A DNA stretch of 64,000 nucleotides from Burkholderiales bacterium (lineage in GTDB: Bacteria > Pseudomonadota > Gammaproteobacteria > Burkholderiales > SG8-39): contig JBFWRS010000017.1 in assembly GCA_050248795.1 (NCBI GenBank), forward strand, positions 1,146-65,145, in the 5' to 3' direction. Shown here one piece after another: positions 12,093 through 62,802 of this stretch. The position numbers and the translations under genes are program-made. The first letter of the stretch is position 1, and every line of letters begins with the position of its first letter. The notes below the pieces were generated by a model, which was given only the letters and a program-made list of their open reading frames with translations, searched no databases and was not told the DNA's origin.

Positions 12093-12108
12093 CTGCGTTT
12101 CGCCTCCG

Positions 12109-14382
12109 TCAGATCGAGCTGTAGCGCTCGCGCAGGCGCTGGCGCACCAGTTCGGCGAGCGTGTTCACGACGAAGGTGAAGCCGAACAGCACCAGCGCCG
12201 AGAGGAAAAGCACCCGGTAGTGAGTCGAGCCGACCGCGGATTCCGGGATCTCGACGCCGATGTTCGCCGACAGCGTGCGGAACCCGGTGAAGATGCTGAA
12301 ATCCATCACCGCGGTGTTGCCGGTGGCCATCAGCACGATCATCGTTTCCCCGACCGCGCGGCCCATGCCGATCATGATCGCCGAGAAGATGCCGGGGCTC
12401 GCGGTAAGCAGCACCACGAACAGCAGCGTTTGCCAGGGCGTGGCGCCCAGCGCGAGCGAGCCCGAGGTAAGGTGCCTGGGGACGCTGAAGATCGCGTCTT
12501 CCGCGATCGAGAATATCGTCGGTGTCACCGCGAAGCCCATGGCGATGCCCACGACCAGGGAATTCCTCTGCTCGAATGTGATGCCCATCTCGTTGCTGAG
12601 CCAGTGCGGCATGTCGCCGTTGAAGAACCGGCCCTCGACGACGTTGCCAAGGGCGAGCGCGATGTAGATGGCGAGGATCACCACCGGTATCAGCATCGCC
12701 GCCTCCCAGCCCGGTGGAACGCGGTTGGTGAAACCCGCCGGGATCAGGTGCCACGCATACGAGGCCAGCACGATCATCAATGGCATGACGACGAGGATGA
12801 GCAGGGTTCCGGCGAGGTTGTTCTCGACGAACGGCGCCAGCCACAGGCCCGCGAGGAAGCCGAGGATCACGGTGGGCAAGGCCTCCATGATCTCGATGGA
12901 CGGCTTGACGACCGTGCGCATGCGGGCCGACATGAAGTAGGCGGCGAAGATCGCGCCGAGCACCGCGAGCGGTACCGACACCAGCATGGCGTAGAAGGCG
13001 GCTTTCAGCGTGCCGAAGGTGAGCGGTGACAGGCTGAGCTTCGCCTCGAAGTCGGAAGTCGCTGCCGACGACTGCCACAGGTACTCAGGCTTGTTGTAGC
13101 CCTCGTACCAGACCTTTTCCCACAGCGCATGCCAGGAGATCTCGGGATGTTCGTTGTCGACGCGGGCATGGTGGAATGCGCCGCCGGCTTCCTCGATGAG
13201 GAGCGCGTTCGCACGGGGAGCGACCGTAGCCGACGCAATGGCCGTCTTTCCGAGCGCTTCGGTGTGCATCGTCCGCCGCGACGTCGCGTAATAGATGCCG
13301 ACGTTCCCCTTGTCGTCGCCGGCAAGGAACCCCTTGCGAAAGAACTCCGGCGTAATCAGCGTCACGCGGCCCGGGAGCGGGTCGAACGTGCGGATGCGAG
13401 TAAGGTTGAGGGTGTTCTGGCCGTCGTTCACCAGGAACCACTGCGCGAGCGAACCCTTCGAACTGCCGACGATCAGCGAGAACCCGCCGCTCAGGATCTC
13501 CAGCGCCGATATCGCGTCGTCCTCCGGCAGTACCTGCACCTTCTGCATGAACTTGGGCTGCGCCTTGTCTGTGATGTCGTACTGGCTGACGAATCGCGCG
13601 TCGTGCGCCACGTAGAGCTCGCGATGCTTGATGTCCACGATCAGCTTCGTGATCGGGCCGGTGACCGGGGCGAGTTCCGCGCCTTCGGATTCGAGCGTCA
13701 CTTCGCCGCTGATCAGGTTCTTCGTTGCGGTAAGCCCGCGCAGGACGAGGCGACCGTCTTCCGTCAGCGCGACGATCGTGGTGCCGTCCTTCTCGCCGTG
13801 CTGGACGCTGACCATCCGCAGTGCGCTGCCCTTGTCGTCGACGACGATCGGATCCTCGCCCACGGGGAACTCGAGCTTTGGCGTGATCGTGCGCTTGTCC
13901 TTGGGGAACGTGACTTCGTAGACCTGCTTGGCGAGCAGCACGCGGCCGTCGGACAGGCCATATGCCGTGACGTACTCGTGCGGGTCGCCGGCATCGAAGC
14001 TGGTGATCTTCGCGCCGGCCGGGACCTTCAGGCGGGTTTCGGCCATTGGGCGCCCATCCCGCATGTCGAAGAACATCACCCCGCCTGCGTCCGTGAAGCG
14101 CACGCCGACCTCGGCGAGTTCCTCGGCTGAAAGATGCACGGTCTTCTCGTCCTTGGGGCCCGGGCGCGGGTACTGCGTGGCGCCGTGCATGCCCGCCGGC
14201 ACGAACAGCGGCACCACCACGCTCGCAAGGTAGAAGAAGATCGTGCTGATGGCGACGATGACGCTGATGCCGCCGATGGTCATCATCTGGCGGAACAGCA
14301 TGTCCTTGGTCAGCCGCCTGGATAGGTGGCGCTCCGCGTGCAGGTCGAAACCGGAGGGAGATGTGGAGAGGGGCGTGCTCAT
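12109..14382 (-). CDS. pstC: phosphate ABC transporter permease PstC (long form with a roughly 430-aa N-terminal periplasmic domain)
   Basis: The C-terminal permease core contains [19 protein letters not shown]. One TM segment is followed by a long soluble domain before the permease. The gene follows pstS and the lipoprotein gene. Confidence 0.85.
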   Translation of the reverse strand: MSTPLSTSPSGFDLHAERHLSRRLTKDMLFRQMMTIGGISVIVAISTIFFYLASVVVPLFVPAGMHGATQYPRPGPKDEKTVHLSAEELAEVGVRFTDAGGVMFFDMRDGRPMAETRLKVPAGAKITSFDAGDPHEYVTAYGLSDGRVLLAKQVYEVTFPKDKRTITPKLEFPVGEDPIVVDDKGSALRMVSVQHGEKDGTTIVALTEDGRLVLRGLTATKNLISGEVTLESEGAELAPVTGPITKLIVDIKHRELYVAHDARFVSQYDITDKAQPKFMQKVQVLPEDDAISALEILSGGFSLIVGSSKGSLAQWFLVNDGQNTLNLTRIRTFDPLPGRVTLITPEFFRKGFLAGDDKGNVGIYYATSRRTMHTEALGKTAIASATVAPRANALLIEEAGGAFHHARVDNEHPEISWHALWEKVWYEGYNKPEYLWQSSAATSDFEAKLSLSPLTFGTLKAAFYAMLVSVPLAVLGAIFAAYFMSARMRTVVKPSIEIMEALPTVILGFLAGLWLAPFVENNLAGTLLILVVMPLMIVLASYAWHLIPAGFTNRVPPGWEAAMLIPVVILAIYIALALGNVVEGRFFNGDMPHWLSNEMGITFEQRNSLVVGIAMGFAVTPTIFSIAEDAIFSVPRHLTSGSLALGATPWQTLLFVVLLTASPGIFSAIMIGMGRAVGETMIVLMATGNTAVMDFSIFTGFRTLSANIGVEIPESAVGSTHYRVLFLSALVLFGFTFVVNTLAELVRQRLRERYSSI

Positions 14383-14415
14383 GGCGCGTGCCGGCAGTTG
14401 GAGGGGCGGCGAAGA

Positions 14416-14441
14416 AGGGGCCGAGGATTTCCCCGGCCCCT
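14416..14441 (-). terminator. intra-operon hairpin between the lipoprotein gene and pstC
   Basis: AGGGGCCG-(10 nt)-CGGCCCCT forms an 8-bp perfect stem in the 85-nt spacer. It is followed by only a weak T run on the minus strand, so it may be an attenuator or mRNA-stability element. Confidence 0.35.
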
Positions 14442-34972: not shown

Positions 34973-35043
34973 CTATTCGGTGCCCATAATGCCTCGTGAC
35001 CGCGCCTGTGCCGGTCGCGCCTGCACCGGATGGAGGGTTCGAC

Positions 35044-36105
35044 ATGAAGCACGACATTCTCGTTCTGGGGGCCTCGTACGGTTCCCTGCTCGGCACCAAG
35101 CTGCTGATGGCCGGGCACCGCGTCACGCTGGTCTGTACCGCGGCAACCGCCGAACTGATCAACCGCGAAGGCACGCGGGTGCGCTTTCCGCTGCGCGGCC
35201 GCGACGGGCTGCTGGAAGTCGCGTCCGGATCGCTGCCGGGCGAGCTATGCGCAGCCGCGCCCGAAGCGGTGGACCCGCAGGACTACGACCTCGTCGTGCT
35301 CGGCATGCAGGAGGCGCAGTACGCCGGCGCCGGTGTGCGCGAGCTGATGGGCCGCATCGCCCGCGCGCGCAAGCCCTGCCTCGCCATCATGAACATGCCG
35401 CCGCTGCCCTACCTCGCGCGCATCCCGGGGCTGGCGACGCAGGCGCTGGAAGGCTGCTATGCCGATCCGGGGGTATGGGCGGACTTCGACCCGGCGATGA
35501 TCACGCTGGCGAGCCCGGATCCGCAGGCATTCCGGCCCCCGGGTGAGCCGAAGAACGTGCTGCAGGTCGGCTTGCCCACCAACTTCAAGGCGGCGAGGTT
35601 CGATGGCGAGGCGCCCACCGCGCTCTTGCGCGAGCTCGAAGCGGACATCGACGCGGCACGGCTGCACATGGGCGACGAGGAAATCGAGATCCCGGTGAAA
35701 CTGAAAGTGCACGAATCGGTGTTCGTGCCGCTGGCCAAATGGCCGATGCTGATCGCCGGCAACTACCGCTGCATCCGCGCCGACGAGATGATCCCGATCA
35801 AGGAGGCGGTGCATGGCAACGTCGCCAAGTCCCGCGAAGTCTACGACTGGGTGGCGAAGCTGTGCGGCAGGCTGGGCGCCGAGGCGGCCGACCTGGTGCC
35901 GTTCGACAAGTACGCCAAGGCCGCCGAGGGCCTGGGCAAGCCCTCGTCCGCCGCGCGCGCGCTGTTCTCCGGCGCGCAGCACATCGAGCGCGTGGACAGC
36001 CTGGTGCGCGGCATCGCTCGCCACCTGGGGCTGCACTCCGACGCGCTGCACGAGATCGTCACGCTGGTGGACGAGCGCCTGGGGCGCAACCGCCTGGCGC
36101 GCTGA
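35044..36105 (+). CDS. ketopantoate reductase (PanE/ApbA)-like NAD(P)-binding oxidoreductase
   Basis: A ggaggg RBS precedes MKHDILVLGASYGSLLGTKLLMAGHRV (Rossmann fold). The C-terminal region, GKPSSAARALFSGAQHIERVDSLVRGIA, resembles the PanE C-domain. The gene is divergent from the regulator. Confidence 0.5.
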   Translation: MKHDILVLGASYGSLLGTKLLMAGHRVTLVCTAATAELINREGTRVRFPLRGRDGLLEVASGSLPGELCAAAPEAVDPQDYDLVVLGMQEAQYAGAGVRELMGRIARARKPCLAIMNMPPLPYLARIPGLATQALEGCYADPGVWADFDPAMITLASPDPQAFRPPGEPKNVLQVGLPTNFKAARFDGEAPTALLRELEADIDAARLHMGDEEIEIPVKLKVHESVFVPLAKWPMLIAGNYRCIRADEMIPIKEAVHGNVAKSREVYDWVAKLCGRLGAEAADLVPFDKYAKAAEGLGKPSSAARALFSGAQHIERVDSLVRGIARHLGLHSDALHEIVTLVDERLGRNRLAR

Positions 36106-36117
36106 ACGGGGCGCCGA

Positions 36118-36873
36118 TCAGGCTTCGCCGGCATCTTCGCCGGCGGGCGCCTCGTCGATCGGCTGCGTCAGTTCCGGCCCGTGGTTGCGCGCGCTGTTGA
36201 CGCGCTTGTCGACGCGGTGCGCGCGCACCGCGTCGGCGGGCACCGGCTGCAGCAGCTCGCGTACCGCTTGCGCATCGGTCAACGCGGGGTCCAGCCAGGC
36301 GTCCTGGTTCGCGGCGGGCAGCGGGAACGGCATGCGGTCGTGGAAGCGGCCCACGGTTTCGTTCGCCGGCCCGGTGATGATGGCGCAGGATTCGACGACG
36401 CTGCCTTCGCGTTCCCAGCGGTCCCACACGCCGGCGAGCAGAGCGGTTTCGCCGCCCCGCGGATAAACGAACCACGGCAGGTTGCCGCTCGTCAGTTCCT
36501 GCCATTCGTACCAGCCGCTGGCGGGAACCAGGCAGCGGCGCCGCCTGAACGGCAGGCGGAAGCTCGCCGCGTCGGCGACGCCTTCGACGCGCGCGATGAA
36601 GCTGGTGAAGCGCACGCGCGGCTCTTTCGACCAGTGGGGCAGCAACCACCATTGCATGGGCACGATCTCGGGCACGCCGCCGGCAGCGGCGCGCACCACC
36701 GGCACATAGTTGGCCGGATTGCCCTGCTGCGGGGCGATGTTGTAGCGCGGCGGGAAGCTTTCCAGGTAGCGCTCGACGAAGCGCCGGATCAGCGCCTCCG
36801 CGCCGTCGTCGAGCGCCGACTTTTCCTGCCGCGACATCGACTTCGGCCCGTAGAGCGCATAGCGTCCGCACAT
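36118..36873 (-). CDS. SOS response-associated peptidase (SRAP/YedK, abasic-site DNA-protein crosslink family)
   Basis: MCGRYALYGP has the catalytic Cys2, and the motifs NIAPQQ and ASGWYEWQ are present. Confidence 0.85.
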   Translation of the reverse strand: MCGRYALYGPKSMSRQEKSALDDGAEALIRRFVERYLESFPPRYNIAPQQGNPANYVPVVRAAAGGVPEIVPMQWWLLPHWSKEPRVRFTSFIARVEGVADAASFRLPFRRRRCLVPASGWYEWQELTSGNLPWFVYPRGGETALLAGVWDRWEREGSVVESCAIITGPANETVGRFHDRMPFPLPAANQDAWLDPALTDAQAVRELLQPVPADAVRAHRVDKRVNSARNHGPELTQPIDEAPAGEDAGEA

Positions 36874-36931
36874 GCCGCGATGATAGCGGGGCGGCCTGCG
36901 GCAGGGTCGGCCCTACGGTAGAGTCCGCCCT

Positions 36932-38086
36932 GTGACGAGCGTTGCCCGCAAGATTGCGCTGCTGGTGCCAGAGCTTCCCACGCGGGAGGAGCTGGCGCCT
37001 TACCTCGATCGCATCGACGAATCGCACTGGTACACCAACTTCGGCCCGCTGGTGCGCGAACTCGAAGCAGCGATGGCCGTGCAGTTCTCCACCGGTGCGT
37101 CGGCGACGCAGCACGTGGTATCGGTGAGCAATGCCACGCTGGGGCTGGAACTGGCGATCCTCGCGCTGGAGTTGCCGGCGGGTAGCCGGGTGCTGGTGCC
37201 GGCGCTGACCTTCGTTGCCTCCGCCGCCGCGGTGATGCGCGCCGGCTGCGTGCCGGTGTTCTGCGACGTCGAGCCCGACACCTGGCTGCTGTCGCCACGC
37301 ATCGCCGAGGACGCGCTCAAGCGCGTGCGCTTCGATGCGGTGATGCCGGTGTCGACCTACGGCTGCCCGCAGCAGATGCCGGCGTGGGACGCGTTTGCCG
37401 AGCGCACCGGCATCCCGGTAGTGGTCGATGCCGCCGGCGCCTATGGCAACCAGCACGCGTCCGCGCGCTGCATCATCGTCTACAGCCTGCACGCCACCAA
37501 GGCACTGGCGGCGGCAGAAGGCGGGCTGGTGGTCAGCGCAGACGCGGCGTACGTCGAGCGGGTGAGGATACTGAGCAATTTCGGCATCGACCTGTCGACG
37601 GTATCCGAAGCCACCGCGGGTTCCACCGGCCTGGTCGGCTCGGCGGGCACCAACGGCAAGCTTTCCGAATATCACGCCGCGCTCGCGCTGGCGGCGCTGG
37701 CGCGCTGGCAGGCGACCTCGGCTCGGCGCATTGCGCTGCATGCGACGTATCTCGAGCAGCTGGCCGCGCAGTGCCCTTCGCTCATGCTGCAGGCGCGCCC
37801 GGCCGACGGCGTCTACTCCATCCTGCCGGTGCTGGTGCCGCCAGGGCGCAAGGCCGCCGATGCCTGGCGCGCGCTGCGCGAGCAGGGCATCGAAACTCGC
37901 CGCTGGTACTGCCCGCCGCTGCCTGAGCACCCGGCGTTCGCAGCGATGCCTGTCGCCGACCGGCTGGAAGTTGCGCAGGCGGTGGGCGAGCGGTTGATCG
38001 CGTTGCCGTTTCACGCCCGGCTTGCGGAGGGCGATCCTGCGGCGGTGTGCAGCGCGCTCGCAGGCTGGCTTGGCCGTTTCCGCTAG
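36932..38086 (+). CDS. DegT/DnrJ/EryC1/StrS-family PLP-dependent sugar aminotransferase
   Basis: The family layout is present: PYLDRIDESHWYTNFGPLVRELE, VLVPALTF, and YSLHATKALAAAEGG with the PLP lysine. The start is a GTG. Confidence 0.8.
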   Translation: MTSVARKIALLVPELPTREELAPYLDRIDESHWYTNFGPLVRELEAAMAVQFSTGASATQHVVSVSNATLGLELAILALELPAGSRVLVPALTFVASAAAVMRAGCVPVFCDVEPDTWLLSPRIAEDALKRVRFDAVMPVSTYGCPQQMPAWDAFAERTGIPVVVDAAGAYGNQHASARCIIVYSLHATKALAAAEGGLVVSADAAYVERVRILSNFGIDLSTVSEATAGSTGLVGSAGTNGKLSEYHAALALAALARWQATSARRIALHATYLEQLAAQCPSLMLQARPADGVYSILPVLVPPGRKAADAWRALREQGIETRRWYCPPLPEHPAFAAMPVADRLEVAQAVGERLIALPFHARLAEGDPAAVCSALAGWLGRFR

Positions 38087-38096
38087 ACTTCGCCGC

Positions 38097-40019
38097 GTGA
38101 GCGCACCCGCGAAGAAGGTCACGCCACCGACTGTCACGGTGGAGAACGTGCAGCTCGAGCGTTTCGAGACTCTGGTCTATTCGCGCCAGTACGAAGAGGC
38201 CGGGCGCGAGCTGCTGGGCAACCTCAAGCGCCTCAAGGTCGGCGGCGAGTTCGCCGGGCACGCCATGAGCGACGACACGCGCCCGCGCCTTTACTCCAGG
38301 TTCGCGGCGGCGATCACGGCGCTGATGGCCGACCCCGCGTTCCAGCTTTCGCAGGAAGGCTTCGACCTGCTGGCGGTCGAGCACGCGACGTTCCATGCGG
38401 TGTTCGCGGCCAGCGCTTTCGGCAACGCCGACCACCTGCTGCGCCAGTTCGGCCAGGTGGACGAAACGGACCACGGCAAGCTGCATTTCAGCAGCCCGCA
38501 GAACATCGTCAAGCTGCTGCTTGCGTACTCGCTGGATTCCGAACTCGACATCGACTTCGAGTCCGTGTTTCGCACCGCGCCGCGCCTGGCGCTGCCGGCG
38601 TTCCTCGGCATGCTGGCGCACATCGTGGTGCTGTCGCCGCGCGCGCATGCACGGCGCGAGAAACTGCTGACGCTCGGGCCGCTGTTCGAGCAGGTGGAGT
38701 TGCGCGAACACATGCTTGCGGCCATGTCGGATGCTTACATGTACTGCAGCTACGCCACGGCCGAGACCAAGCACGAGATGAAGCGTTCCTTCAACGCGAT
38801 GACGCGGCGCCTCATCGAGACGAGGATCAGCCTGCCGGCCATGCCCGCGGAGCGCAGGCTGAAGAAGCGCCCGACGATACTGGTGCCGATCGAGTGGTTC
38901 ACCTCGCTGCATGCGATGTACCGCTGTTACGCACCCTCGATCAGGCAGCTTCGGGAGAGGTTCAGGCTGGTCATGATCGGCCGGACTTCCGAAATGGACG
39001 AGGTGTCCAAGGAACTTTTCGACGAGACCATAGAACTGTCCGGTTCGAACGTTGCGCTGGCCGATGTCGTCGATCGCGTCACGAAGGTCAAGCCGGATGT
39101 CATTTTCTATCCGAGCGTGGGCATGGCGACCTGGTGGGTCGCGCTGTCCTCGGTCCGGTTGGCGCCTGTCCAGGTCGCGACCGTCGGCCATCCCGCGACC
39201 ACCCAGTCGGCGAACATCGACTACGTCCTTGTCGACGGGCTGTGGCCCGGTGACCCAAGCTGCTTCAGCGAGACGGTGGTCGTTCAGCGACCAGGCAGCA
39301 CCGCGTTCATCATGCGCGAGGACGCGTCGTTTCCGGAGCCGCAACTGCGCGAGCATCCGGCCGTGCTTCGCCTGGCGGTACCGGCGATGGCGTGCAAGAT
39401 CAACGCGCCGTTCCTGGAATGTTGCGTGGGGATCGCGCGCAAGGCCAGGCGGCCGCTCGAGTTCCACTTCTTCCCGAACATGATCGGCCTGACGCACTTC
39501 CAGATATCGCGCGAGATCCGGAAATGGCTGCCGAACGCGATCGTGCATCCGCGCAGCGACTACAACACCTACCTCGGGAACATGGCGCAGTGCGACGTGC
39601 ACCTGTCGACGTTTCCGTTCGGCGGGACCAACAGCAACATCGACTCGATGCGGCTCGGGATCCCGATGCTGACGCTGGAAGGACTGGAGGTGCACAGCCA
39701 GACCGACTCCGGGATGATGCGCCGCGTCGGCCTGCCGGAATGGCTGATTACGTACCACGCCGCGGAGTACGAGCGCGCCGCGCTGCGGCTCATCGCCAAC
39801 GACGCGGAACGAACCGGAATCGCGCGGCAGCTCATCGGCACCGACGTGTTCGCGCACTTCATGCGCGTGCCGGCGGACGTGCCCGAGACCGAGTTCCTCG
39901 ACGCCATGTGGTTCATCTACCGCAAGCACGAGAAGATCCAGGCGAGCGGAAGCCGCTACTGGCCGGTAGCCGCGCGGGAAGCGTTCGAGCGCGAGCCGGT
40001 GGCGGCCGGGTCGCGTTGA
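38097..40019 (+). CDS. GT41-family glycosyltransferase, HMW1C/NGT-like (non-TPR all-alpha N-terminal domain plus OGT/SPINDLY-type catalytic C-terminus)
   Basis: The C-terminal signature is VATVGHPATTQSANIDYVLVDG ... CDVHLSTFPFGGTNSNIDSMRLGIPMLTLEGLEVHSQTDSGMMRRVGLPEWLITYHAAEYERAALRL. The N-terminal 300 aa or so are helical with no obvious TPR periodicity. The GTG start is 10 nt after the DegT stop. Confidence 0.6.
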   Translation: MSAPAKKVTPPTVTVENVQLERFETLVYSRQYEEAGRELLGNLKRLKVGGEFAGHAMSDDTRPRLYSRFAAAITALMADPAFQLSQEGFDLLAVEHATFHAVFAASAFGNADHLLRQFGQVDETDHGKLHFSSPQNIVKLLLAYSLDSELDIDFESVFRTAPRLALPAFLGMLAHIVVLSPRAHARREKLLTLGPLFEQVELREHMLAAMSDAYMYCSYATAETKHEMKRSFNAMTRRLIETRISLPAMPAERRLKKRPTILVPIEWFTSLHAMYRCYAPSIRQLRERFRLVMIGRTSEMDEVSKELFDETIELSGSNVALADVVDRVTKVKPDVIFYPSVGMATWWVALSSVRLAPVQVATVGHPATTQSANIDYVLVDGLWPGDPSCFSETVVVQRPGSTAFIMREDASFPEPQLREHPAVLRLAVPAMACKINAPFLECCVGIARKARRPLEFHFFPNMIGLTHFQISREIRKWLPNAIVHPRSDYNTYLGNMAQCDVHLSTFPFGGTNSNIDSMRLGIPMLTLEGLEVHSQTDSGMMRRVGLPEWLITYHAAEYERAALRLIANDAERTGIARQLIGTDVFAHFMRVPADVPETEFLDAMWFIYRKHEKIQASGSRYWPVAAREAFEREPVAAGSR

Positions 40020-40027
40020 GCACCGGC

Positions 40028-40690
40028 ATGGCGACGCGCGTCCTCGTCATCGGATCGTCCGGGCACGCGGGGGTCGCCATCGATGCGATCGAGCGCTGCG
40101 GCCTCGAGGTCGCCGGGCTGGTCGACTCGTTCCGGCAGGCCGGCGAGTCGGCGTACGGCTACCAGGTAATCGGGCCTGAGGATGCCATTCCCGCCTTCCT
40201 GCAAAAGTACGAGGATTGCGCCGTGGCAATCGCCATCGGTGACAACTTCCAGCGCCGGCGGATGCGGCACAGGCTGCGGGAACTGGCGCCGCAACTGGGC
40301 GCCGTCACGGTGATCCACCCGCATGCGAGCGTCAGCGCGCGGGCGTCGATCGAAGACGGTGCCATGGTCTGCGCCGGCGCCATCGTCTGCGCCGGCGCTC
40401 GCGTGGGCGAGGGCTGCCTGCTGAACACCGGGGCGACATTGGACCACGACTGCACCATGGAGGCGTACTCGAGCCTCGGCCCCGGCGCGGTCGTGGGCGG
40501 CAGCGTGCGCATCGGCGAATGCAGCGCGGTGGGCATCGGGGCGACGCTGCGGCACGGCGTCAGCATCGGCGCGCACACCGTGATCGGTGCGGGCGCGGTT
40601 GTCGTGGGAGACATTCCGGCTCGGTGCGTCGCCTACGGCGTGCCTGCCCGCGCTGTCAGGGAGCGCCGGGCCGACGAGCCGTACCTCTGA
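40028..40690 (+). CDS. NeuD/PglD/VioB-family sugar N-acetyltransferase (left-handed beta-helix)
   Basis: The N-terminal Rossmann-like sequence is VLVIGSSGHAGVAIDAIE. Hexapeptide repeats follow (IEDGAMVCAGAIVCAGARVGEGCLLNTGATLDHDCTMEAYSSLGPGAVVGGSVRIGECSAVGIGATL). Confidence 0.8.
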   Translation: MATRVLVIGSSGHAGVAIDAIERCGLEVAGLVDSFRQAGESAYGYQVIGPEDAIPAFLQKYEDCAVAIAIGDNFQRRRMRHRLRELAPQLGAVTVIHPHASVSARASIEDGAMVCAGAIVCAGARVGEGCLLNTGATLDHDCTMEAYSSLGPGAVVGGSVRIGECSAVGIGATLRHGVSIGAHTVIGAGAVVVGDIPARCVAYGVPARAVRERRADEPYL

Positions 40691-40718
40691 CGCGGGATCG
40701 GTGCCGCCACCCGCAGCC

Positions 40719-41922
40719 ATGTCCCTCGTCAGCATCTGCATACCCACGTACAACAGGGCGGCGCTGCTCGCGAGGCACCTCGAGCACCTGTCCGGTTTCG
40801 GCCTGGAGATCGAGGTCGTCGTATCCGACAATGCGTCGAGCGACGACACGCGCGCGGTCGCGGAGTCGTTCGCGGGACGATTCCCGCGATTTCGCTACGT
40901 TCGCCTGCCGGGGCGCATGCATCCGCACCGATGCTGGGACTCCGCACTGCGGGGAGCGACCGGCGAGTACGTCTACGCGCTCGGGGATGACGACCTCGTC
41001 GTGGAGGAGGGCCTGGCGGAACTGCTCGCGTACATGCGCGCGCGGCCGAGCGTGCTGGCAGCGTTCGGCGCGCAGCAGTTGCATGATCTCGCGAGCGGAC
41101 GCTTCCTCGGCTATGCAAGGCGGACCGACGTGCTGGAGCATTACGGCGCGGCGGATCGCGCGGATGTTCGCGCGCTACTGGACGCTCGAGTTTCCGCTGA
41201 TGCGCCGCGATGTCTACCAGCGCGGTGTGCTGTTCGATCCGTTCCACCGATTCTTCCTGTGGTCATGGGTAGATGCTGTCCTGCGCCACGGCGAGCTGAT
41301 CGTCGCGCCGACAGTGATGTTCCAGCACTACCTTCACGACAAGCGGCTGACGCACGAGCAGGCGGTGGACCCGGAATGGATGTTCAAGGTCGCCAGCGAG
41401 ATCGAGTCGTTCGCGGCTACCCTTGACTGCGATGCGCCGACCCGCGCGCGGCTCGTGTCCTGGCAGTTGTCGCAGTGGTACCTGTTCCACTCGGGCCTGG
41501 CGGCTTCCGGCGCAAGCCAGTGCGGCGCGCGACTTTTCATCCGCAAGGGCATGGCTTACGATCCGGCGACTTTCCAGCCGCTCGCGGCCGAATGGGAACA
41601 GCGACACATCCTGCATGCGATGCTGGAACTGGTGCTCAGCAGGATCGAGCAGTACGGCGGCGTTCGCACCGTCGTGATCGAGGAAAGCGACATTGCCGCA
41701 TGGCTGGCCGGACAACTCGAGCGCGCCGGGCTCGGAACCGCGATCGAGCCCATGTCGGGGATTCTTTCTTCACGCCCGGACCGCGACAGCTACGTGCTCT
41801 TCAAGCACTATCCTGACAAGGACGCCGGCGTACTCGCGGAACTGGGGGGACGGCACTGTGCCTGCATGGACCTGCTGACCACACTGCGGCTGACGAATGC
41901 CGATCTGAACCTGACCGTATGA
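40719..41922 (+). pseudogene. GT2-family glycosyltransferase with an uncharacterised C-terminal domain, interrupted by a +1 frame change near 41130-41165
   Basis: The frame of 40719 gives MSLVSICIPTYNRAALL...VVVSDNASSDDT...YVYALGDDD (GT-A/DxD) and then degenerates into Arg/Pro/Ala junk. The next frame becomes protein-like from MFARYWTLEFPLMRRDVYQRGVLFDPF... through to the stop at 41922. The span of 1204 nt is 3n+1. Confidence 0.6.
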
Positions 41923-43283
41923 AAGGCCGGACCTTCATGCACCTGCTGCAACTCTTTCTTTCGGCGGCGCTCTTGCTTTCCGCACCGGCCCAGGGGGCGA
42001 TTCCTGCCGTTGCAATCCGCGACGGCCTTCCGACCCTGGCGCCGGTGTTGTCCAGAGTCACCCCCGCCGTAGTCAACATCGCGGTACTGCAGCAGTCCCC
42101 CGAGGCGCAGAACCCGCTGCTGCGCGATCCGTTCTTCCGGCGCTTCTTCGGGCTGCCGGAGCAGCAGCAGCCGCAGATTTCGGCAGGGTCGGGGGTGATC
42201 GTCGACGCGAAGAACGGCTACGTGCTGACGAACCACCACGTGGTGAAGGATGCGCGCGAAGTGCTGGTGACGCTGAAGGACAACCGGCGGCTGCCGGCGA
42301 AGCTGGTGGGGTCGGATGCCGGCACCGACATCGCGGTGCTGCGCATCGAGCCGGGGGAACTGGCGGAGGCGAAGTTCGGCGATTCGGACACGCTTCAGGT
42401 GGGCGACTTCGTCGTCGCCATCGGCAACCCCTTCGGCATCGGCCAGACGGTCACCTCGGGGATCGTCTCCGCGCTCGGGCGCTCGGGGCTCACGCAGGGA
42501 GCGTACGAGGACTTCATCCAGACCGACGCATCCATCAACCCCGGCAATTCCGGTGGCGCGCTGATCAACCTGCGCGGGGAACTGGTCGGCATCAACACCG
42601 CGATCATCGGCCCGTCTGGTGGCAACGTCGGCATAGGCTTTGCGGTGCCGGCAAACATGGCGCGGGCGGTGATGCGGCAGATCATCCGCTTCGGCGAGGT
42701 GCGCCGCGGCAGGCTGGGCGTCGTCATGCAGGACCTGACGCGGGACCTCGCGCGCAGCCTCGGCATCTCCGCGCGCACCGGGGTCGCGCTGACGCAGGTG
42801 ATTCCCGACTCGCCCGCCGCGCAGGCGGGACTGCGGATGGGCGATGTCATCACCGCGATCAACGGCCGCCAGGTACGGGGCTCTGCGGAACTGCGCGCGC
42901 AGCTCGGCGTCGTGCCGGTGGGCGAGACGGTGGAACTGCGCGTGCTGCGCGGCGCCGAAACGCGACAGGTGCGGGTACAGATCGGCGCAGTAGAGGCACG
43001 TGGGGGCGGCGGCAGCGAGCCGATACAACTGCTCGCGGGCGCCTCGATCGCGAATGCCGAGCGGCAGGTCGCGAACGGCAAGGAAGCGGTGGTCTACGTG
43101 ACCAAGGTCGCGCCGGGCAGCGCCGCGTTCAAGCACGGCCTGCGTGCCGGCGACATCATCCTCGGCGTCAACCGGCGGCGCGTCGCCAACGTCGAGGAGC
43201 TGATCGCCGCCATGCGCGTCGAGGGGCGCATCGCCATCCACGTCCAGCGCGGGGATTTCCAGCTGACGATAGTCGTCCGCTAA
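41919..43283 (+). CDS. DegP/DegQ-family periplasmic serine endoprotease (two PDZ domains)
   Basis: A signal peptide is followed by the trypsin-like triad context (LTNHHVV, DIAVLRI, GNSGGALINLRGELVGINTAI). The start overlaps the GT2 stop with ATGA. Confidence 0.85.
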   Translation: MKGRTFMHLLQLFLSAALLLSAPAQGAIPAVAIRDGLPTLAPVLSRVTPAVVNIAVLQQSPEAQNPLLRDPFFRRFFGLPEQQQPQISAGSGVIVDAKNGYVLTNHHVVKDAREVLVTLKDNRRLPAKLVGSDAGTDIAVLRIEPGELAEAKFGDSDTLQVGDFVVAIGNPFGIGQTVTSGIVSALGRSGLTQGAYEDFIQTDASINPGNSGGALINLRGELVGINTAIIGPSGGNVGIGFAVPANMARAVMRQIIRFGEVRRGRLGVVMQDLTRDLARSLGISARTGVALTQVIPDSPAAQAGLRMGDVITAINGRQVRGSAELRAQLGVVPVGETVELRVLRGAETRQVRVQIGAVEARGGGGSEPIQLLAGASIANAERQVANGKEAVVYVTKVAPGSAAFKHGLRAGDIILGVNRRRVANVEELIAAMRVEGRIAIHVQRGDFQLTIVVR

Positions 43284-43298
43284 AGCTGGCCACGGCCG

Positions 43299-44132
43299 TC
43301 AGGATCCCTGCGCCCTCTTTAGCGATGCGGCAAGCGCTGCTCGCTCCGCTTCGGGAAACTGGCTTGGGACTATGAAGCGCCGCCGTTGGACTGGTGGCAC
43401 GGCGTATGTGCGTGCCGCAACCTTGTTCATCGCCCAGACGCCGTTTTCCGACCACACGCGCCCGCCGAAGAAATCGCGCACCGCGGTGGTCACTCCGGGA
43501 TGGAACCGAGCGCCGGTGCGCGGATCCGCCATGAAATCGCTGCGGGGATTGGCACGCGCGAAATCCGCGTCACATTCGTCCAGTTGCAGCTCCAGATCGT
43601 CGCCGCAAAGGATGCCTCCAGTTCTTACGAGGCGCTCGGCAAGCGCGAGGTCTGTCCGCACGTCGTCGTGGTAGTGGCTTCCATCAACGTAGACGATGTC
43701 GAACGATTCCGCCTGAAGATACTGCTCGAACTCGGGAAGCGACCCCCGAACATGGCGGATGTTCACTCCTGACGCAGCAAAGCGAACGTTGTGGAGGAAC
43801 AGGTCGTACGCCAGCCCAGTACTCGCGAGGCCCTCCATCTGCAGATAGGGCCCGGCTTCGTTGCGCGCCGAGTCCTCGAAGTACGGCGCCCATGGGTCGA
43901 TGCAGACAACGGTGCCCTTTTCCGGGCAGAAAGCGGCGATCGCTTCGCTCCATGTCAATGCGCTGTGCCCAATCCAGGAGCCGACCTCCAGGATGTCGAC
44001 GCGCTGACGTTTGACCAGTGACACCAGGGAGGCGATCTCCGCATGTCTCGCGATCGTGCACTGACGCCCTGCCGTGCCGCCTTCGAAGTACGGCCCATCG
44101 GGAAACAGCTGCGCCAGGAATCGCCTCATCAA
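43299..44132 (-). CDS. class I SAM-dependent methyltransferase (Methyltransf_24/TylF-CmcI-like)
   Basis: Motif I is ILEVGSWIGHS, followed by VVCIDPW and IVYVDGSHYHDDV. It is convergent with degQ across a 15-nt gap. Confidence 0.65.
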   Translation of the reverse strand: MMRRFLAQLFPDGPYFEGGTAGRQCTIARHAEIASLVSLVKRQRVDILEVGSWIGHSALTWSEAIAAFCPEKGTVVCIDPWAPYFEDSARNEAGPYLQMEGLASTGLAYDLFLHNVRFAASGVNIRHVRGSLPEFEQYLQAESFDIVYVDGSHYHDDVRTDLALAERLVRTGGILCGDDLELQLDECDADFARANPRSDFMADPRTGARFHPGVTTAVRDFFGGRVWSENGVWAMNKVAARTYAVPPVQRRRFIVPSQFPEAERAALAASLKRAQGS

Positions 44133-44136
44133 TCGG

Positions 44137-46260
44137 CTACTCCCGCGCGCGCACGATCTTCTTCACGTCGGTCAGCCGGCGCAGCGCGCGCATCACGCGC
44201 GCCAGGTGGTCGCGATTGGCGACTTCGAGCACGAACAGCATCGTCGTGAAGACCGCGCGGTCGTCCTGCATGCTGATCGAATCGATGTTGGCGCCGGCTT
44301 CGGCGATTCCCGAGGCGACTTTTGCCAGCACGCCGCGCTGGTTGGACACGGTGACGCCGATCGCGGCCTGGAACAGGCGCTTTGGCGCGCGGTCCCATTC
44401 CACGTCTATCCACTGATCCGGCTCGTTCCGGCGCGAGCGCTCGGCGGTACGGCAGTCGGCGGCGTGGACGACCAGTCCCTGCCCCTTCTTCATCGAGCCG
44501 AGGATGCGATCGCCAGGGATCGGGCGGCAGCAGCTCGCGAGCTGCACCGCCATGCCCTCGGTGCCGCGTATGACGACGCTGCCCGCGGGCCTGGCCGCCC
44601 CGGGCTTCGCGTCCGGCGCCTCGCCGTGCTTCAGGAACTTGCGCGCGACCACGGCCGACAGGCGCTTGCCCAGCCCGATGTCCGCGAGCACTTCCTCCTT
44701 GGTGCGCGCGCCGCCGTCGCGGATGACGCGCTCCCAGGTCACCGGCTCGGTGTCGGCGAGCGACAGGCCGAGGGCCTTCAGCGCCTGGTCGAGCAGGCGC
44801 TCGCCCAGCGCCGCCGACTCCTCGTACTGCATGGTCTTGAGGAAGTGGCGGATGTTCGCGCGCGCCTTGCCGGTGCGCACGTACTGCAGCCACGCCGGGT
44901 TGGGCTTGGCGTGGCTCGCGGTGATGATCTCGACGCGGTCGCCGTTGCGCAGTTCGGTGCGCAGCGGCGCCAGCTCGCCGTTCACCTTGGCGGCGACGCA
45001 GCAGTTGCCGATGTCGGTGTGCACCTGGTAGGCGAAGTCGACCGCCGTCGCGCCGCGCGGCAGCGACAGGATCCTGCCCTTGGGCGTGAAGACGTAGACC
45101 TCGTCCGGAAACAGGTCCACCTTGACGTGCTCAAGGAACTCCTGCGGGTCGCCCGACTGGTTCTGGATGTCCAGCAGCGACTGCAGCCACTGGTGCGTCT
45201 TCAGTTGCAGGTCGGACAGGGAATCCGCGTCGTCCTTGTACATCCAGTGCGAGGCGACGCCGGCGTCGGCGATGCGGTGCATGGCCTCGGTGCGGATCTG
45301 CGCCTCGACCGGCAGGCCGTACGGCCCGATCAGCGCGGTGTGCAGCGACTGGTAGCCGTTCGCCTTGGGGATCGCGATGTAGTCCTTGAACTTGCCCGGC
45401 ACCGGCTTGTACAGCGCGTGCAGCGCGCCCAGCGCGAGGTAGCAGGCCGGCACGTCCTTGACGACGATGCGAAAGCCGTAGATGTCGTGCACCTCGGAGA
45501 ACGACAGGTGCTTCTCGATCATCTTGCGGTAGATGGAGTAGATGTGCTTCTCGCGCCCGGTGATGGTCGCCTGGATGCCGCTCTCGGCGAGCTTCAGCCG
45601 CACCTGTTCGAGCATCTTGCCGATCACCTCGCGCCGGTTGCCGCGCGCGGCCCGCGTGGCGCGAAGCAGCACGTCGTAGCGCAGCGGGTGCATGTTCGCG
45701 AACGCGAGTTCCTGCAGTTCGTGGAACAGCGCGTTCAGGCCGAGCCGGTTTGCGATCGGCGCGTAGATCTCTATCGTTTCCCGGGCGACGCGCCTGCGCT
45801 TGGCAGGCGACACGGCGGACAGCGTGCGCATGTTGTGCAGGCGGTCCGCGAGCTTGATCAGGATGACGCGCACGTCGCGTGCCATCGCCAGCAGCATCTT
45901 GCGGAAGTTCTCGGCCTGCGCGTCCTCGACCGACTGGAACTCGATCCGGGTGAGCTTGGAAAGCCCGTCGACCAGGTCGGCCACCGGCTTGCCGAAGGTG
46001 TCGGCGATCTCGGCCTTGGTGACCGAGGTGTCCTCCATGACGTCGTGCAGCAGCGCGGCCTGCAGCGCCTGGCTGTCCAGGTGCCAGTCGGCGAGGATCT
46101 CGGCCACCGCGATCGGGTGCGAGATGTAGGGCTCGCCGGACTGCCGGGTCTGCCCGGCGTGCGCGGCTTCCGAGAAGCGGTACGCCTCGGCTATGCGCGC
46201 GACATCCGCCGGCTTCAGGTATGCGAAGCGTTCCTCGTCGAGTGCATGCACGGCCGCCAT
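44137..46260 (-). CDS. spoT: bifunctional (p)ppGpp synthetase/hydrolase
   Basis: The HD domain reads HPIAVAEIL...LLHDVMEDT. The synthetase motif is YKPVPGKFKDYIAIPKANGYQSLHT, and TGS and ACT regions are present. Synteny with rpoZ-gmk supports the call. Confidence 0.9.
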   Translation of the reverse strand: MAAVHALDEERFAYLKPADVARIAEAYRFSEAAHAGQTRQSGEPYISHPIAVAEILADWHLDSQALQAALLHDVMEDTSVTKAEIADTFGKPVADLVDGLSKLTRIEFQSVEDAQAENFRKMLLAMARDVRVILIKLADRLHNMRTLSAVSPAKRRRVARETIEIYAPIANRLGLNALFHELQELAFANMHPLRYDVLLRATRAARGNRREVIGKMLEQVRLKLAESGIQATITGREKHIYSIYRKMIEKHLSFSEVHDIYGFRIVVKDVPACYLALGALHALYKPVPGKFKDYIAIPKANGYQSLHTALIGPYGLPVEAQIRTEAMHRIADAGVASHWMYKDDADSLSDLQLKTHQWLQSLLDIQNQSGDPQEFLEHVKVDLFPDEVYVFTPKGRILSLPRGATAVDFAYQVHTDIGNCCVAAKVNGELAPLRTELRNGDRVEIITASHAKPNPAWLQYVRTGKARANIRHFLKTMQYEESAALGERLLDQALKALGLSLADTEPVTWERVIRDGGARTKEEVLADIGLGKRLSAVVARKFLKHGEAPDAKPGAARPAGSVVIRGTEGMAVQLASCCRPIPGDRILGSMKKGQGLVVHAADCRTAERSRRNEPDQWIDVEWDRAPKRLFQAAIGVTVSNQRGVLAKVASGIAEAGANIDSISMQDDRAVFTTMLFVLEVANRDHLARVMRALRRLTDVKKIVRARE

Positions 46261-61392: not shown

Positions 61393-62652
61393 CTACTTCG
61401 CCGCCGCGCGCACCACGCCCAGGCGGCGGCTGCGCGGCTGCTGCTTCAGCCGCGGCGGATTGACCAGGTCGCGCACGTAGTTCGGCAGCGCAAACACGCC
61501 CTCGTGCGTTTCGCCGTTGTAGAACTGCAGCGCCTGCAGGCGCCGCGCCTCGATCCGGCGGTCGATCTCGTCGGCGGTGAAGGACTTGGGATCAAGCTTG
61601 TCGGAGCACACCGCCATCGCCCACTGCGCGCCATACAGCGGGATGTACATGGTGTACGGGCGCACGATGCGGAAGATCGCGTTCAGCCGCTGCGCGAGTT
61701 CGCCCACGCGCTCGGGACGCGCCACCGGCGCGCCGATGTGCAGCACGAGCGCGCCTCCGGGCGCGAGCGCGTGCCGGCAGGTCTGGAAGAACTCGGTCGA
61801 GTACAGCGCCTCGGCCGGGCCCATGGGGTCGTTCAGGTCCAGCGCGATGAGGTCGAACTTCTCGTTCGTGTCGCGGATGAACTTCATGCCGTCGCCGATG
61901 AGCACGCGCAGCTTCGGGTTGTCGAAGACGCCGTTGTGCACCGCGTGGAAATGTTCCTTCGCGACCTGGATCACGTCTTCGTCGATCTCGCACAGCGTCA
62001 CCTGCTCGACCGACGGGTGCTTCAGCGCCTCTTCCGCCGAGCCGCCGTCGCCGCCGCCGATGATCAGCACTTTCCTCGGCGCGGCATGCGCCGTCAGCGC
62101 CGGGTGGATCAGGTTCTCGTGGTAGACGAACTCCTCCTTCTCGGAGGTCATGTTGTACCCGTCGAGCCTGAACAGCTTGCCGTAGTGCGGCGTGTCGTAG
62201 ATCTGCATCTTCTGGTAGCGCGTCTGCCACTCGCCCACCATGCGGTCTGCCATGATGTAGAAGCCGGTGGAGTCGTTCAGCGGTTCCATCAGCAGGTGCC
62301 CGCCACGCGACACTTCATGGCGCGCGATCTCGGCCGGCTGGAAGTGCGCGATGATCGAGTCGAACAGCTGGCGCGCCTTCGCCGAGTTGTCGCCGCTGTA
62401 GTTGCAGACGTAGACATCCAGCGTCAGGCCCTGCTTCTCCGGCCAGGTGTGGATCGCCAGGTGGGATTCGGCAAGCACCACCGTGCCGGTGTAGCCCGAG
62501 CCCTCGAACTGGTGGAAGCTCACGTCCATGATCGTCAGGCCGGATGCATTGACCAGTTCGACGCACTTTGCCTCGAACGCCTTGCCGTCCAGCAGCACCT
62601 GCGGGTCGCAACGGCACCCGCCCAGATCGCCAATCAGATGCAGACCGTTCAT
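61393..62652 (-). CDS. fused S-adenosylmethionine decarboxylase proenzyme / spermidine synthase
   Basis: The N-terminal 110 aa or so match SpeD class 1 (HLIGDLGGC..., self-cleavage context VLAESHLAIHTWPE). The remainder matches SpeE (YHENLIHPAL, VLIIGGGDGGSAEE, DLIALDLNDP). A ggaggg RBS precedes the ATG at 62652. Confidence 0.85.
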   Translation of the reverse strand: MNGLHLIGDLGGCRCDPQVLLDGKAFEAKCVELVNASGLTIMDVSFHQFEGSGYTGTVVLAESHLAIHTWPEKQGLTLDVYVCNYSGDNSAKARQLFDSIIAHFQPAEIARHEVSRGGHLLMEPLNDSTGFYIMADRMVGEWQTRYQKMQIYDTPHYGKLFRLDGYNMTSEKEEFVYHENLIHPALTAHAAPRKVLIIGGGDGGSAEEALKHPSVEQVTLCEIDEDVIQVAKEHFHAVHNGVFDNPKLRVLIGDGMKFIRDTNEKFDLIALDLNDPMGPAEALYSTEFFQTCRHALAPGGALVLHIGAPVARPERVGELAQRLNAIFRIVRPYTMYIPLYGAQWAMAVCSDKLDPKSFTADEIDRRIEARRLQALQFYNGETHEGVFALPNYVRDLVNPPRLKQQPRSRRLGVVRAAAK

Positions 62653-62668
62653 GTCCGTGTCCCTCCAC

Positions 62669-62708
62669 AAACGAGAAAGCGCAGCCGGCCATGTGTTCCG
62701 GGCTGCGC
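62669..62708 (-). terminator. terminator-like hairpin plus T-run, about 16 nt upstream of the speD-speE start codon
   Basis: The minus strand reads GCGCAGCCCGG-aacacatgg-CCGGCTGCGC followed by TTTCTCGTTT, then GTGGAGGGACACGGAC-ATG. It lies in the 150-nt nudC to speDE spacer. Confidence 0.5.
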
Positions 62709-62802
62709 CTCTCCGTTACCGCCTCGCGGCGAAAAACCGAGTTGCTCGAGTTGGATCAATTCGTGCAATACCCCGCTTGGGCGATGTAGTCTGCCCGGTT
62801 AA

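Follow-up and report, generated by a model that had tools for sequence, protein, structure and literature searches.

Comparison with described systems

No simpler protein-glycosylating enzymes are known than the HMW1C-type N-glycosyltransferases (NGTs), which have found wide use in glycoengineering. To our knowledge, their known natural donors are essentially uridine diphosphate (UDP)-glucose (UDP-Glc) and UDP-galactose (UDP-Gal). Here we analysed a stretch of 64,000 nucleotides from a Burkholderiales bacterium (contig JBFWRS010000017.1, positions 1,146 to 65,145), referred to below as the window. It carries a gene for an HMW1C-like glycosyltransferase (GT) of 640 amino acids (aa), in a row with genes for amino-sugar synthesis. 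A first-pass annotation, made from the letters alone, had proposed an orphan five-gene operon for protein glycosylation, with an unusual donor sugar and no visible substrate gene. With moderate confidence, we read the locus as a strain-variable cytoplasmic cassette that would put a 4-acetamido-4,6-dideoxyhexose on a secreted protein encoded elsewhere.

The window enzyme resembles ApNGT, AaNGT and Haemophilus influenzae HMW1C in its two-domain fold, its nucleotide-binding and catalytic residues and its soluble, cytoplasmic nature. It differs from them in the loss of the counterparts of Arg177 and His214, in an altered donor pocket and in an NGT equivalog score at one third of the cut-off. While the characterised enzymes use the housekeeping UDP-Glc pool, the window GT is tightly paired with an aminotransferase and an N-acetyltransferase.

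In the A. pleuropneumoniae locus rimO-ngt-agt, an HMW1C-like gene without an adjoining adhesin or transporter gene is followed by a second, extending glycosyltransferase (PMC5303269). The first-pass annotation had assumed that known HMW1C-type genes adjoin their substrates. This substrate-less locus shows that the rule is not general (PMC5303269), and the orphan status of the window GT is not unusual. The order ngt then agt resembles that of the window GT and the family 2 glycosyltransferase (GT2) downstream of it. However, rimO-ngt-agt has no sugar-tailoring genes, its extender is an alpha-1,6-glucosyltransferase making dextran, and it is conserved, whereas the window locus is swapped between strains.

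The viosamine island of P. syringae and P. aeruginosa comprises vioA, vioB, vioM, vioT, vioS, vioR and acp, for the flagellin glycan (PMC3927599). Like the window locus, it is a small island set among housekeeping genes and remote from fliC, and it encodes a glycosyltransferase and a methyltransferase along with a C4 aminotransferase and a VioB-type acyltransferase (PMC3927599). Its vioS, vioR and acp are matched by the KAS III, the ketoreductase and probably the acyl carrier protein (ACP) of phage-borne relatives, but KAS III, ACP and reductase are not present in the window. VioT has 1,173 aa and adds its sugar to rhamnose, whereas the window GT, with 640 aa, presumably acts directly on protein. 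The flagellin islands of Enterobacteriaceae also combine a GT41-family transferase with DegT, NeuD acetyltransferases, FkbM/AdoMet methyltransferases and fatty-acid genes, and they are strain-variable (PMC4875605). They lie inside the flagellar locus, and their GT41 enzymes (COG3914) are described as being of the SPINDLY/tetratricopeptide repeat (TPR) type, mostly fused to a methyltransferase (PMC4875605). The window protein, in contrast, has an HMW1C all-alpha domain, no TPR and no flagellar neighbours. The window locus thus has the gene content of a flagellin island (GT, aminotransferase, N-acyltransferase, methyltransferase, strain variability), but not the flagellar location.

Yersinia pestis HmwC, 41% identical to ApHMW1C, is reported to O-GlcNAcylate Ser with UDP-GlcNAc, and its Thr438 position is changed (PMC11329713). 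This enzyme shows donor and acceptor plasticity in the fold class. It differs from the window system in using the housekeeping UDP-GlcNAc pool, in having no dedicated sugar-synthesis partners and in the regulatory modification of cytoplasmic proteins. In the literature searched, we found no description of an HMW1C-type enzyme linked to flagellin, aminotransferases or phages, nor of an HMW1C-class enzyme hard-wired to amino-dideoxy-sugar synthesis, as here across phyla and phages.

Class, fold and residues of the 640-aa enzyme

The GT gene (38097-40019, plus strand, GTG start) encodes a protein with the Pfam domains HMW1C_N (6.8e-16) and HMw1_D2. In phmmer searches against PDB sequences, residues 19-583 matched AaNGT (1.7e-86), ApNGT (1.7e-84) and an ApNGT mutant (1.7e-83). 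Identity to ApNGT and AaNGT is ~30% over the full length. Matches to TPR-type O-GlcNAc transferase (OGT) and to SPINDLY (SPY) were limited to ~70 residues of the C-terminal lobe. An AlphaFold2 model, built with 34 homologs, had a predicted local distance difference test (pLDDT) score of 92.2 and a predicted template modelling (pTM) score of 0.91. With Foldseek, this model gave template modelling (TM) scores of 0.87/0.89 to 3q3e and 0.88/0.91 to 8p0q over ~620 columns; OGT and SPY reached only ~0.5.

Homology and the predicted structure place the protein securely in the HMW1C/NGT class, as a soluble cytoplasmic enzyme with a predicted all-alpha N-domain and a GT-B part, and not in the TPR-OGT class. 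The first-pass annotation had called it GT41, HMW1C/NGT- or SPINDLY-like. The HMW1C/ApNGT side of this call holds, by homology and TM scores of 0.87-0.91, and the strong fold match to ApNGT/AaNGT leaves the GT41 claim standing on those grounds. Pfam Glyco_transf_41 (PF13844) itself, however, aligned to residues 499-571 only, with 23.2 bits, below its gathering threshold of 25. The class is therefore assigned from HMW1C_N and the full-length homology to solved NGTs, not from the Glyco_transf_41 score. The annotators had also seen an N-terminal half without TPR, fitting the all-alpha HMW1C-type domain. The HMW1C_N match bears them out, as do the lack of any Pfam TPR match in the protein and the superposition of its N-domain on the all-alpha domain of ApNGT. 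Membership of the fold class is secure, but the same function as the characterised N-glucosyltransferases does not follow securely from the sequence.

The nucleotide-binding and catalytic residues are all kept (H272, R276, G364, H365, K434, Y492, N512 and D516). Their AaNGT equivalents (His276, Arg280, Gly369, His370, Lys440, Tyr500, Asn520 and Asp524) are kept in 57-68 of 69 family members; the roles of these residues, and of those in the acceptor site, were taken from PMC10507012. The donor pocket differs from that of the glucose-specific NGTs: Ala takes the place of Ser277 (65 of 69 sequences), Met that of Thr437 and Arg that of His494, while Gln468 aligns with Asn or Met in the pairwise and the family alignment, respectively. 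The AaNGT acceptor triad Arg177/His214/Asp215 reads Ile/Ser/Asp, in a loop whose alignment is less certain than that of the GT-B core. The Asp215 equivalent is D212. Arg177 is essential in AaNGT (PMC10507012). With the acceptor dyad half conserved (Asp kept, Arg not), N-linkage at N-X-S/T is not to be assumed.

Amino-sugar genes beside the glycosyltransferase

Directly upstream of the GT lies a DegT-family aminotransferase gene (36932-38086, plus strand; PF01041, 2.4e-71). In NCBIfam and PDB it comes closest to DesI, PseC, ArnB and perosamine synthase, without reaching any of the equivalog cut-offs. The protein retains the pyridoxal phosphate (PLP)-lysine motif SLHATK. By its relatives, it is probably a sugar aminotransferase acting at C4. 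Downstream of the GT lies the gene for a 220-aa acetyltransferase of the NeuD/PglB/VioB type (40028-40690, plus strand; Pfam PglD_N plus Hexapep). It passes the cut-off of TIGR03570 (197.8 vs 160.8 bits), and its nearest solved relatives are PerB (8e-36), Neisseria PglB-ATD (1e-29), VioB (1e-27) and PglD (6e-18). All four N-acetylate nucleoside diphosphate (NDP)-4-amino-4,6-dideoxyhexoses.

These assignments agree with the earlier suggestion of a PglE/PglD- or VioA/VioB-type route to an N-acetylated 4-amino-4,6-dideoxyhexose. The predicted product of the neighbour genes is NDP-4-acetamido-4,6-dideoxyhexose, and its 4-keto-6-deoxy precursor would have to come from genes outside the window. DegT, GT and acetyltransferase are intact open reading frames (ORFs), with catalytic motifs and the codon-position GC pattern of coding genes.

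Family size and gene neighbourhoods

Database searches gave 212 homologs. An exhaustive HMMER scan of 1.84 billion representatives gave, at E <= 1e-30, 553 clusters (50% identity). The top 150 of them all scored at least 303 bits, compared with ~290 bits for ApNGT/AaNGT. With at least 150 such clusters nearer to the window protein than the characterised NGTs, these NGTs are a minority of the family. We gathered 60 genome loci, more by exact-protein look-up, and 30 viral loci. All ORFs within 8 kb of the GT were then clustered for 64 non-redundant loci, with Pfam assignments made on the cluster representatives.

A DegT gene was found within 8 kb of the GT in 42 of the 64 loci, and such loci span Beta- and Gammaproteobacteria, Planctomycetota, Gemmatimonadota and Myxococcota. 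The pairing of DegT with the HMW1C-like gene is not a coincidence, and its conservation across phyla makes the amino-sugar coupling firmer than first claimed. LbH/NeuD acetyltransferases were present in 34 loci. Flagellin was present in 15 loci (29 genes), together with FliS, FliD, FlaG, FlgK, FlgH, FlgI and FleQ; counting FleQ, 18 loci had a flagellar-type gene, and all flagellar-linked members have at most 40% identity to the window protein. Further recurrent neighbours were RmlA, RmlB, WbqC, AMP-binding enzymes, GFO_IDH_MocA, FkbM methyltransferases and PhyH.

Consistent placement in Wzx/Wzy or exporter loci would have spoken for a polysaccharide pathway, and no such pattern was seen. A crude screen for transmembrane (TM) segments gave just 16 ORFs with at least seven of them within 8 kb across the 64 loci. 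None of these recurred, except for the Sulf_transp flank gene at the site shared by betaproteobacterial metagenome-assembled genomes (MAGs).

In a neighbor-joining (NJ) tree of 71 sequences and 620 columns, which is star-like, has no bootstrap and gives leads only, ApNGT and AaNGT were nested within the environmental family, beside an uncultured gammaproteobacterial pair and not at the base. The sister group of the window clade in the tree held prophage locus L066 and betaproteobacterial MAG locus L009. A plasmid search returned canonical EtpC/two-partner secretion-linked NGTs and C-terminal-only matches annotated as TPR proteins; the window clade was not among them.

Strain-variable cassette content at one chromosomal site

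Within the lineage of the window, the location of the cassette is constant, between queC/sulphur transporter (or SRAP) and degQ-spoT, but its content changes. Loci L001 and L102 carry PglD, GT2, a B12 radical S-adenosylmethionine (SAM) enzyme and a split transketolase. L063 carries DegT-PglD-GT-epimerase, and L064 carries AMP-binding-oxidoreductase-ACP-GT2-radical SAM.

The comparison with L063 delimits the exchanged segment. The SpoT proteins of the two genomes are 99% identical, and the flanks, including DegT, have 91.5-93% nucleotide identity (DegT itself 92-93%; blastn). The GT, however, has 74% and the acetyltransferase 66% identity, the latter also in a different gene order, and GT2 and the methyltransferase gene downstream have no counterpart in L063. 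The left recombination breakpoint is at 38041-38110, where the identity of the blastn segments falls from ~92% to 74%. The right one is at ~41985, from where ~92% identity resumes. The more distant genome L007 is collinear with the window at 78% through the whole cassette. Because the L063 flanks are at ~92% and its GT and acetyltransferase at 74% and 66%, while distant L007 is collinear at 78%, the cassette is exchanged between strains by recombination, as at surface-glycan serotype loci.

DegQ, a DegQ/HtrA-type periplasmic protease (41919-43283, plus strand; Trypsin_2 and two PDZ domains), lies beside SpoT in all relatives at the site, whichever cassette they carry. It is a conserved housekeeping flank that marks the right-hand cassette boundary, not a functional cassette member. 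The five-gene operon of the first-pass annotation is therefore not a conserved unit: DegT and GT are constant, DegQ is flank, GT2 is frameshifted and the rest is swapped.

In L001 (13916-17299) and L102 (13884-17292), the B12-binding radical SAM gene and the N and C halves of the transketolase follow GT2; they are absent from the window. These extra genes suggest a C-methylated or two-carbon-branched sugar.

Candidate protein targets beside relatives

The claim that the substrate is wholly invisible holds for the window, where none was found. Elsewhere, close relatives lie beside a giant adhesin or TpsB/TpsA, and distant ones beside flagellin. In L103 (1-8362), a gene for an adhesin-like repeat protein of at least 3313 aa precedes the GT (69% identical to the window protein) by 1.6 kb. 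The repeat protein is Gly/Ala/Thr/Asn-rich, with DUF5649 repeats, beta-helix-like ITITNT/GNGTV motifs and 50 N-X-S/T sites. The L103 GT is followed by genes for a 528-aa protein without assigned function, an RmlD-like reductase and a GT2, and DegT is absent there. The acceptor-site signature Ile/Ser/Asp is identical in the window protein and the adhesin-linked L103 enzyme. By analogy, the giant repeat protein is a candidate for the substrate class of the window enzyme. In L069 (57%), two tandem GT paralogs lie directly upstream of a ShlB-type TpsB gene and TpsA.

In L067 (3908-14705; 41%), DegT-GT-PglD is inserted between pseudopilin/T2SS-K-like genes and a secretin gene, in an operon of the type II secretion/type IV pilus kind. 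This layout suggests glycosylation of a pseudopilin or pilin in that organism. In the flagellar islands of Marinobacter koreensis, Halioxenophilus aromaticivorans and Idiomarina piscisalsi, no glycosyltransferase other than the HMW1C-like one was recognised. The flagellar-linked members are 25-37% identical to the window protein, with Glu or Ile / x / Asn as acceptor signature.

The clusters in L069 (1-21884) and L065 (3218-13820) both contain two tandem HMW1C-like paralogs and two or three large TPR proteins (three in L069, with Glyco_transf_41 matches), as well as DegT, WbqC, LbH, several methyltransferases and PhyH dioxygenases. A 1184-aa representative, P0121, resembles two fused HMW1C-like units.

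Phage-borne relatives

Full-length HMW1C-like genes with 38-48% identity were also found on phage, prophage or IMG/VR contigs of up to ~67 kb (L066, L070, L071 and L072-L087). Pfam domains on L066, L070 and L071 included integrase, lysozyme, Phage-tail_3/Rcc01698_C and phiJL001 Gp84. DegT was within 8 kb of the GT in 16 of the 19 phage and prophage loci examined. With some variation, the phage cassette consists of an LbH acyltransferase, a Rieske oxygenase, DegT, (a 4,6-dehydratase), the GT, (ACP), KAS III and SDR, and in several cases it lies just upstream of the tail-fibre gene. Among isolated phages, tblastn against INPHARED gave no match, and PHROGs has no corresponding family; these relatives are known from metagenomes alone. 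Candidate acceptors for the phage versions are a host receptor, a virion protein or DNA.

In L071 (3081-6342) and L076 (4159-6500), the sugar cassette abuts genes for 5-hydroxymethyl-dU DNA hypermodification. These encode an HMUDK_hel kinase, a thymidylate-synthase-like hydroxymethylase and an HD phosphohydrolase, and in L071 also a TET-associated glycosyltransferase (TAGT). Their layout raises the possibility of a complex amino-sugar DNA modification.

Proposed function and alternatives

In our preferred reading, an NDP-4-keto-6-deoxyhexose made by enzymes encoded outside the window would be transaminated at C4 by DegT, and the product would be N-acetylated by the NeuD/PglB/VioB-family enzyme. 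The HMW1C-like GT, inverting and metal-independent like ApNGT, would move this sugar directly onto a protein while it is still in the cytoplasm, before its export. GT2, frameshifted here, would add a second sugar, and the methyltransferase encoded downstream may methylate the sugar. Judging by the relatives, the target is most likely a TpsA-like adhesin, large, repetitive and secreted; flagellin ranks second.

Fold, catalytic residues, gene order, DegT-GT pairing, cassette swapping and the lack of exporter genes among the ORFs scanned are established directly. What the donor sugar and donor nucleotide are, which protein accepts the sugar and whether the linkage is to Asn or Ser/Thr, we infer from neighbours and relatives. 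The RmlA and RmlB genes of flagellar relatives hint at deoxythymidine diphosphate (dTDP) as donor nucleotide. Both N- and O-linkage are possible, with Asp215 kept, Arg177 not, and Y. pestis HmwC performing O-GlcNAcylation.

Several points weigh against the cassette as a protein-glycosylation system. The window contains no acceptor gene, dehydratase or nucleotidyltransferase, so both ends of the pathway are deduced. No relative at the own chromosomal site has a substrate gene nearby, and the context evidence comes from relatives at 25-69% identity. The NJ tree described above is star-like and has no bootstrap. The gene neighbours are equally typical of O-antigen sugar pathways. The NCBIfam NGT equivalog NF049992 gave 334.2 bits, about a third of its cut-off of 1000, and the peptide-binding mode is uncertain since the acceptor triad is only partly kept. 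The frameshifted GT2 may mean that the cassette is decaying. Counts of N-X-S/T sites can also be listed here, although they are uninformative on N-linkage: there was no enrichment in the 29 GT-adjacent flagellins (mean z 0.21), in the L103 adhesin (50 vs 43.6 +/- 5.6 expected) or in the L069 TpsA (12 vs 10.9).

The locus could instead be a flagellin-glycan island of the viosamine type, detached from the flagellar genes, with the HMW1C-like enzyme as flagellin glycosyltransferase. We consider this possible but rather unlikely. Flagellin is the commonest non-sugar neighbour in the survey (15 loci, 29 genes, plus other flagellar genes), and no second glycosyltransferase was recognised in the islands of M. 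koreensis, H. aromaticivorans and I. piscisalsi. The genes present agree with those of described flagellin islands and with the vioA/vioB/vioM logic (PMC4875605; PMC3927599), and the P. syringae viosamine island is likewise away from fliC (PMC3927599). However, the flagellar-linked members are distant (25-37%) and differ in acceptor signature, the nearest relatives located elsewhere (69% and 57%) adjoin adhesin genes, and the scanned window ORFs include no flagellar gene.

A non-protein acceptor, such as a polysaccharide, lipopolysaccharide (LPS) core, lipid or small molecule, would make the cassette a detached piece of a surface-polysaccharide pathway. O-antigen and capsule loci commonly hold genes for DegT, NeuD-type acetyltransferase, GT2, methyltransferase, epimerase, radical SAM, AMP-binding/ACP and GFO_IDH_MocA, strain-level cassette swapping is typical of O-antigen loci too, and no relative at the own site has an adjacent protein substrate. 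We nevertheless judge this unlikely. Wzx, Wzy, ABC-2, a WbaP/WecA-type transferase and a ligase are absent among the window ORFs scanned, and none of them recurs in the 64 loci. All characterised members of the fold class act on proteins (PMC10507012; PMC5303269; PMC11329713). The recurrent neighbours are flagellin, TpsA or giant adhesins and pseudopilins, and the flagellin islands of three cultured genomes hold no other recognised glycosyltransferase.

Very unlikely, in our view, is a canonical NGT that N-glucosylates the Asn of adhesin N-X-S/T sites from UDP-Glc, with the amino-sugar genes serving an unrelated pathway. Full-length homology and the fold shared with ApNGT/AaNGT fit such an enzyme, as do the kept residues Lys434, Asn512, Asp516, His272, Gly364-His365 and D212 (the Asp215 equivalent) and the adhesin-type neighbours in L103 and L069. 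Against it stand the equivalog score (334 bits vs a cut-off of 1000), the replacement of the AaNGT-essential Arg177 (PMC10507012) by Ile and donor-pocket changes at Ser277 (Ala), Thr437 (Met) and His494 (Arg). Unrelated pathways would also hardly account for a DegT gene close by in 42 of 64 loci, with spacings of 8-10 nt.

Least probable is that the locus is what remains, non-functional and decaying, of a mobile cassette that possibly came from a phage: GT2 is frameshifted, the window lacks the dehydratase that phage versions carry themselves, the nearest NJ sister clade includes prophage locus L066 and phage-borne relatives are common, but DegT, GT and acetyltransferase are intact with catalytic motifs and coding-type codon-position GC, the same cassette type is intact in L007, no phage or insertion sequence (IS) genes flank the cassette among the ORFs scanned, and the 2-nt gap could be an assembly error.

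Returning to the dedicated amino-sugar cassette, it points to a large, unstudied branch of the family, which probably decorates adhesins or flagella with unusual sugars. The window copy is one ordinary member, with a damaged GT2. The exchange of cassettes at this one site suggests that environmental Betaproteobacteria have a protein glycan that varies as serotypes do, and phage or predator selection is a plausible driver. If the cassette works as proposed, an amino-dideoxy-sugar branch would widen the donor chemistry available for one-enzyme protein glycosylation.

A broader reading joins these observations, and we hold it to be doubtful. It sees a large natural HMW1C-like branch that attaches N-acyl-4-amino-4,6-dideoxyhexoses, not glucose, directly to the side chains of proteins while these are in the cytoplasm. 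Should the residues be Asn, this would be the first known case of N-linking an amino-dideoxyhexose independently of a lipid carrier. Giant adhesins and flagellins would be decorated, phage versions would re-decorate host receptors, virions or even hypermodified DNA, and the Pasteurellaceae N-glucosyltransferases would be a small, derived offshoot. If true, this would change the view of the family, with at least 150 closer clusters and with flagellin, TpsA/giant adhesins, pseudopilins and phages as contexts.

Frameshift in the GT2 gene

The GT2 gene (40719-41922, plus strand) has a Glycos_transf_2 match in its N-terminal part (7e-21) and a non-Pfam C-terminal domain. It had been annotated as one intact gene, which it is not: its N- and C-terminal parts are in different frames, with a -2 frameshift. 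The N-terminal frame is that of the ORF at 40587-41426, and the C-terminal frame that of the ORF at 40519-41922. The intact ortholog in L007 (9706-10911, 401 aa) has 70% nucleotide identity and a single 2-nt gap in the MAFFT alignment. This places the deletion within 41150-41165 of the plus strand (context GATCGCGCGGATG), where two bases are missing between ~41158 and 41159, in a short CG-dinucleotide run (TCGCGCGG; CGCGCG). The GT2 is either a pseudogene or the product of an assembly error. Slipped-strand loss could account for the gap, as could a mistake in sequencing or assembly; a run this short does not justify calling phase variation. From its sequence, GT2 would be an extending transferase, probably inactive in this genome.

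Layout of the locus and other window genes

Gene positions, spacing, the start/stop overlap and the convergent methyltransferase are as first annotated, and Pfam backs every family assignment. The spacings are 10 nt between DegT and the GT, 8 nt between the GT and the acetyltransferase and 28 nt between the acetyltransferase and GT2. The GT2 stop and the DegQ start overlap as ATGA at 41919-41922.

Convergent with this plus-strand row is a SAM-dependent methyltransferase gene, MT24 (43299-44132, minus strand; Methyltransf_24, PF13578, 4e-15). MT24 orthologs are found only in L001 and L007, whose GTs are 84-87% identical to that of the window. The gene is absent at this position from L063, L002, L064 and L102. 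The GTs of the three MT24-bearing genomes are 84-100% identical to each other, and L102 has no MT24, though it otherwise shares the content of L001. MT24 is possibly a sugar O-methyltransferase, and we assign it to the cassette only tentatively.

The window has a GC content of ~68%. Among the ORFs scanned across its 64 kb, we found no 4,6-dehydratase, nucleotidyltransferase, adhesin, flagellin or other flagellar gene, pilin or pilus gene, so the earlier statement on this point can be kept. There was also no Wzx, Wzy, ABC-2 or other exporter, WbaP/WecA-type initiating transferase, chain-length regulator or ligase, no oligosaccharyltransferase (PglB/PglL/PglO) or lipid-carrier step (solely the PglE-like and PglD-like steps), and no phage or IS gene flanking the cassette. 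The ORFs upstream are housekeeping genes (tolQ/R/B-pal, queC, sulphur transporter, HTH-DUF3612 regulator and SRAP), as are those downstream (spoT, gmk, Ser/Thr kinase, RNase PH and others). A 369-aa ORF at 34996-36105 was ruled out as substrate; it has a weak ApbA-like NAD-binding match and is conserved in L063 alone. A promoter scan of 36000-44600 gave no promoter-like site, which is uninformative on operon structure at 68% GC, and a terminator scan of the same region gave a single terminator-like site, below shuffle expectation.

Two further features of the window are unrelated to the cassette. A 440-aa ORF (61393-62715, minus strand) combines S-adenosylmethionine decarboxylase and spermidine synthase domains, as a fused polyamine-synthesis enzyme. 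At 10434-14439 (minus strand) there are two adjacent ABC permease genes (BPD_transp_1), with long stop-to-stop ORFs of ~576 and ~776 codons. The pair adjoins an ABC ATPase gene, with a PBP_like_2 binding protein slightly beyond, and resembles long-form phosphate-type transporter permeases.

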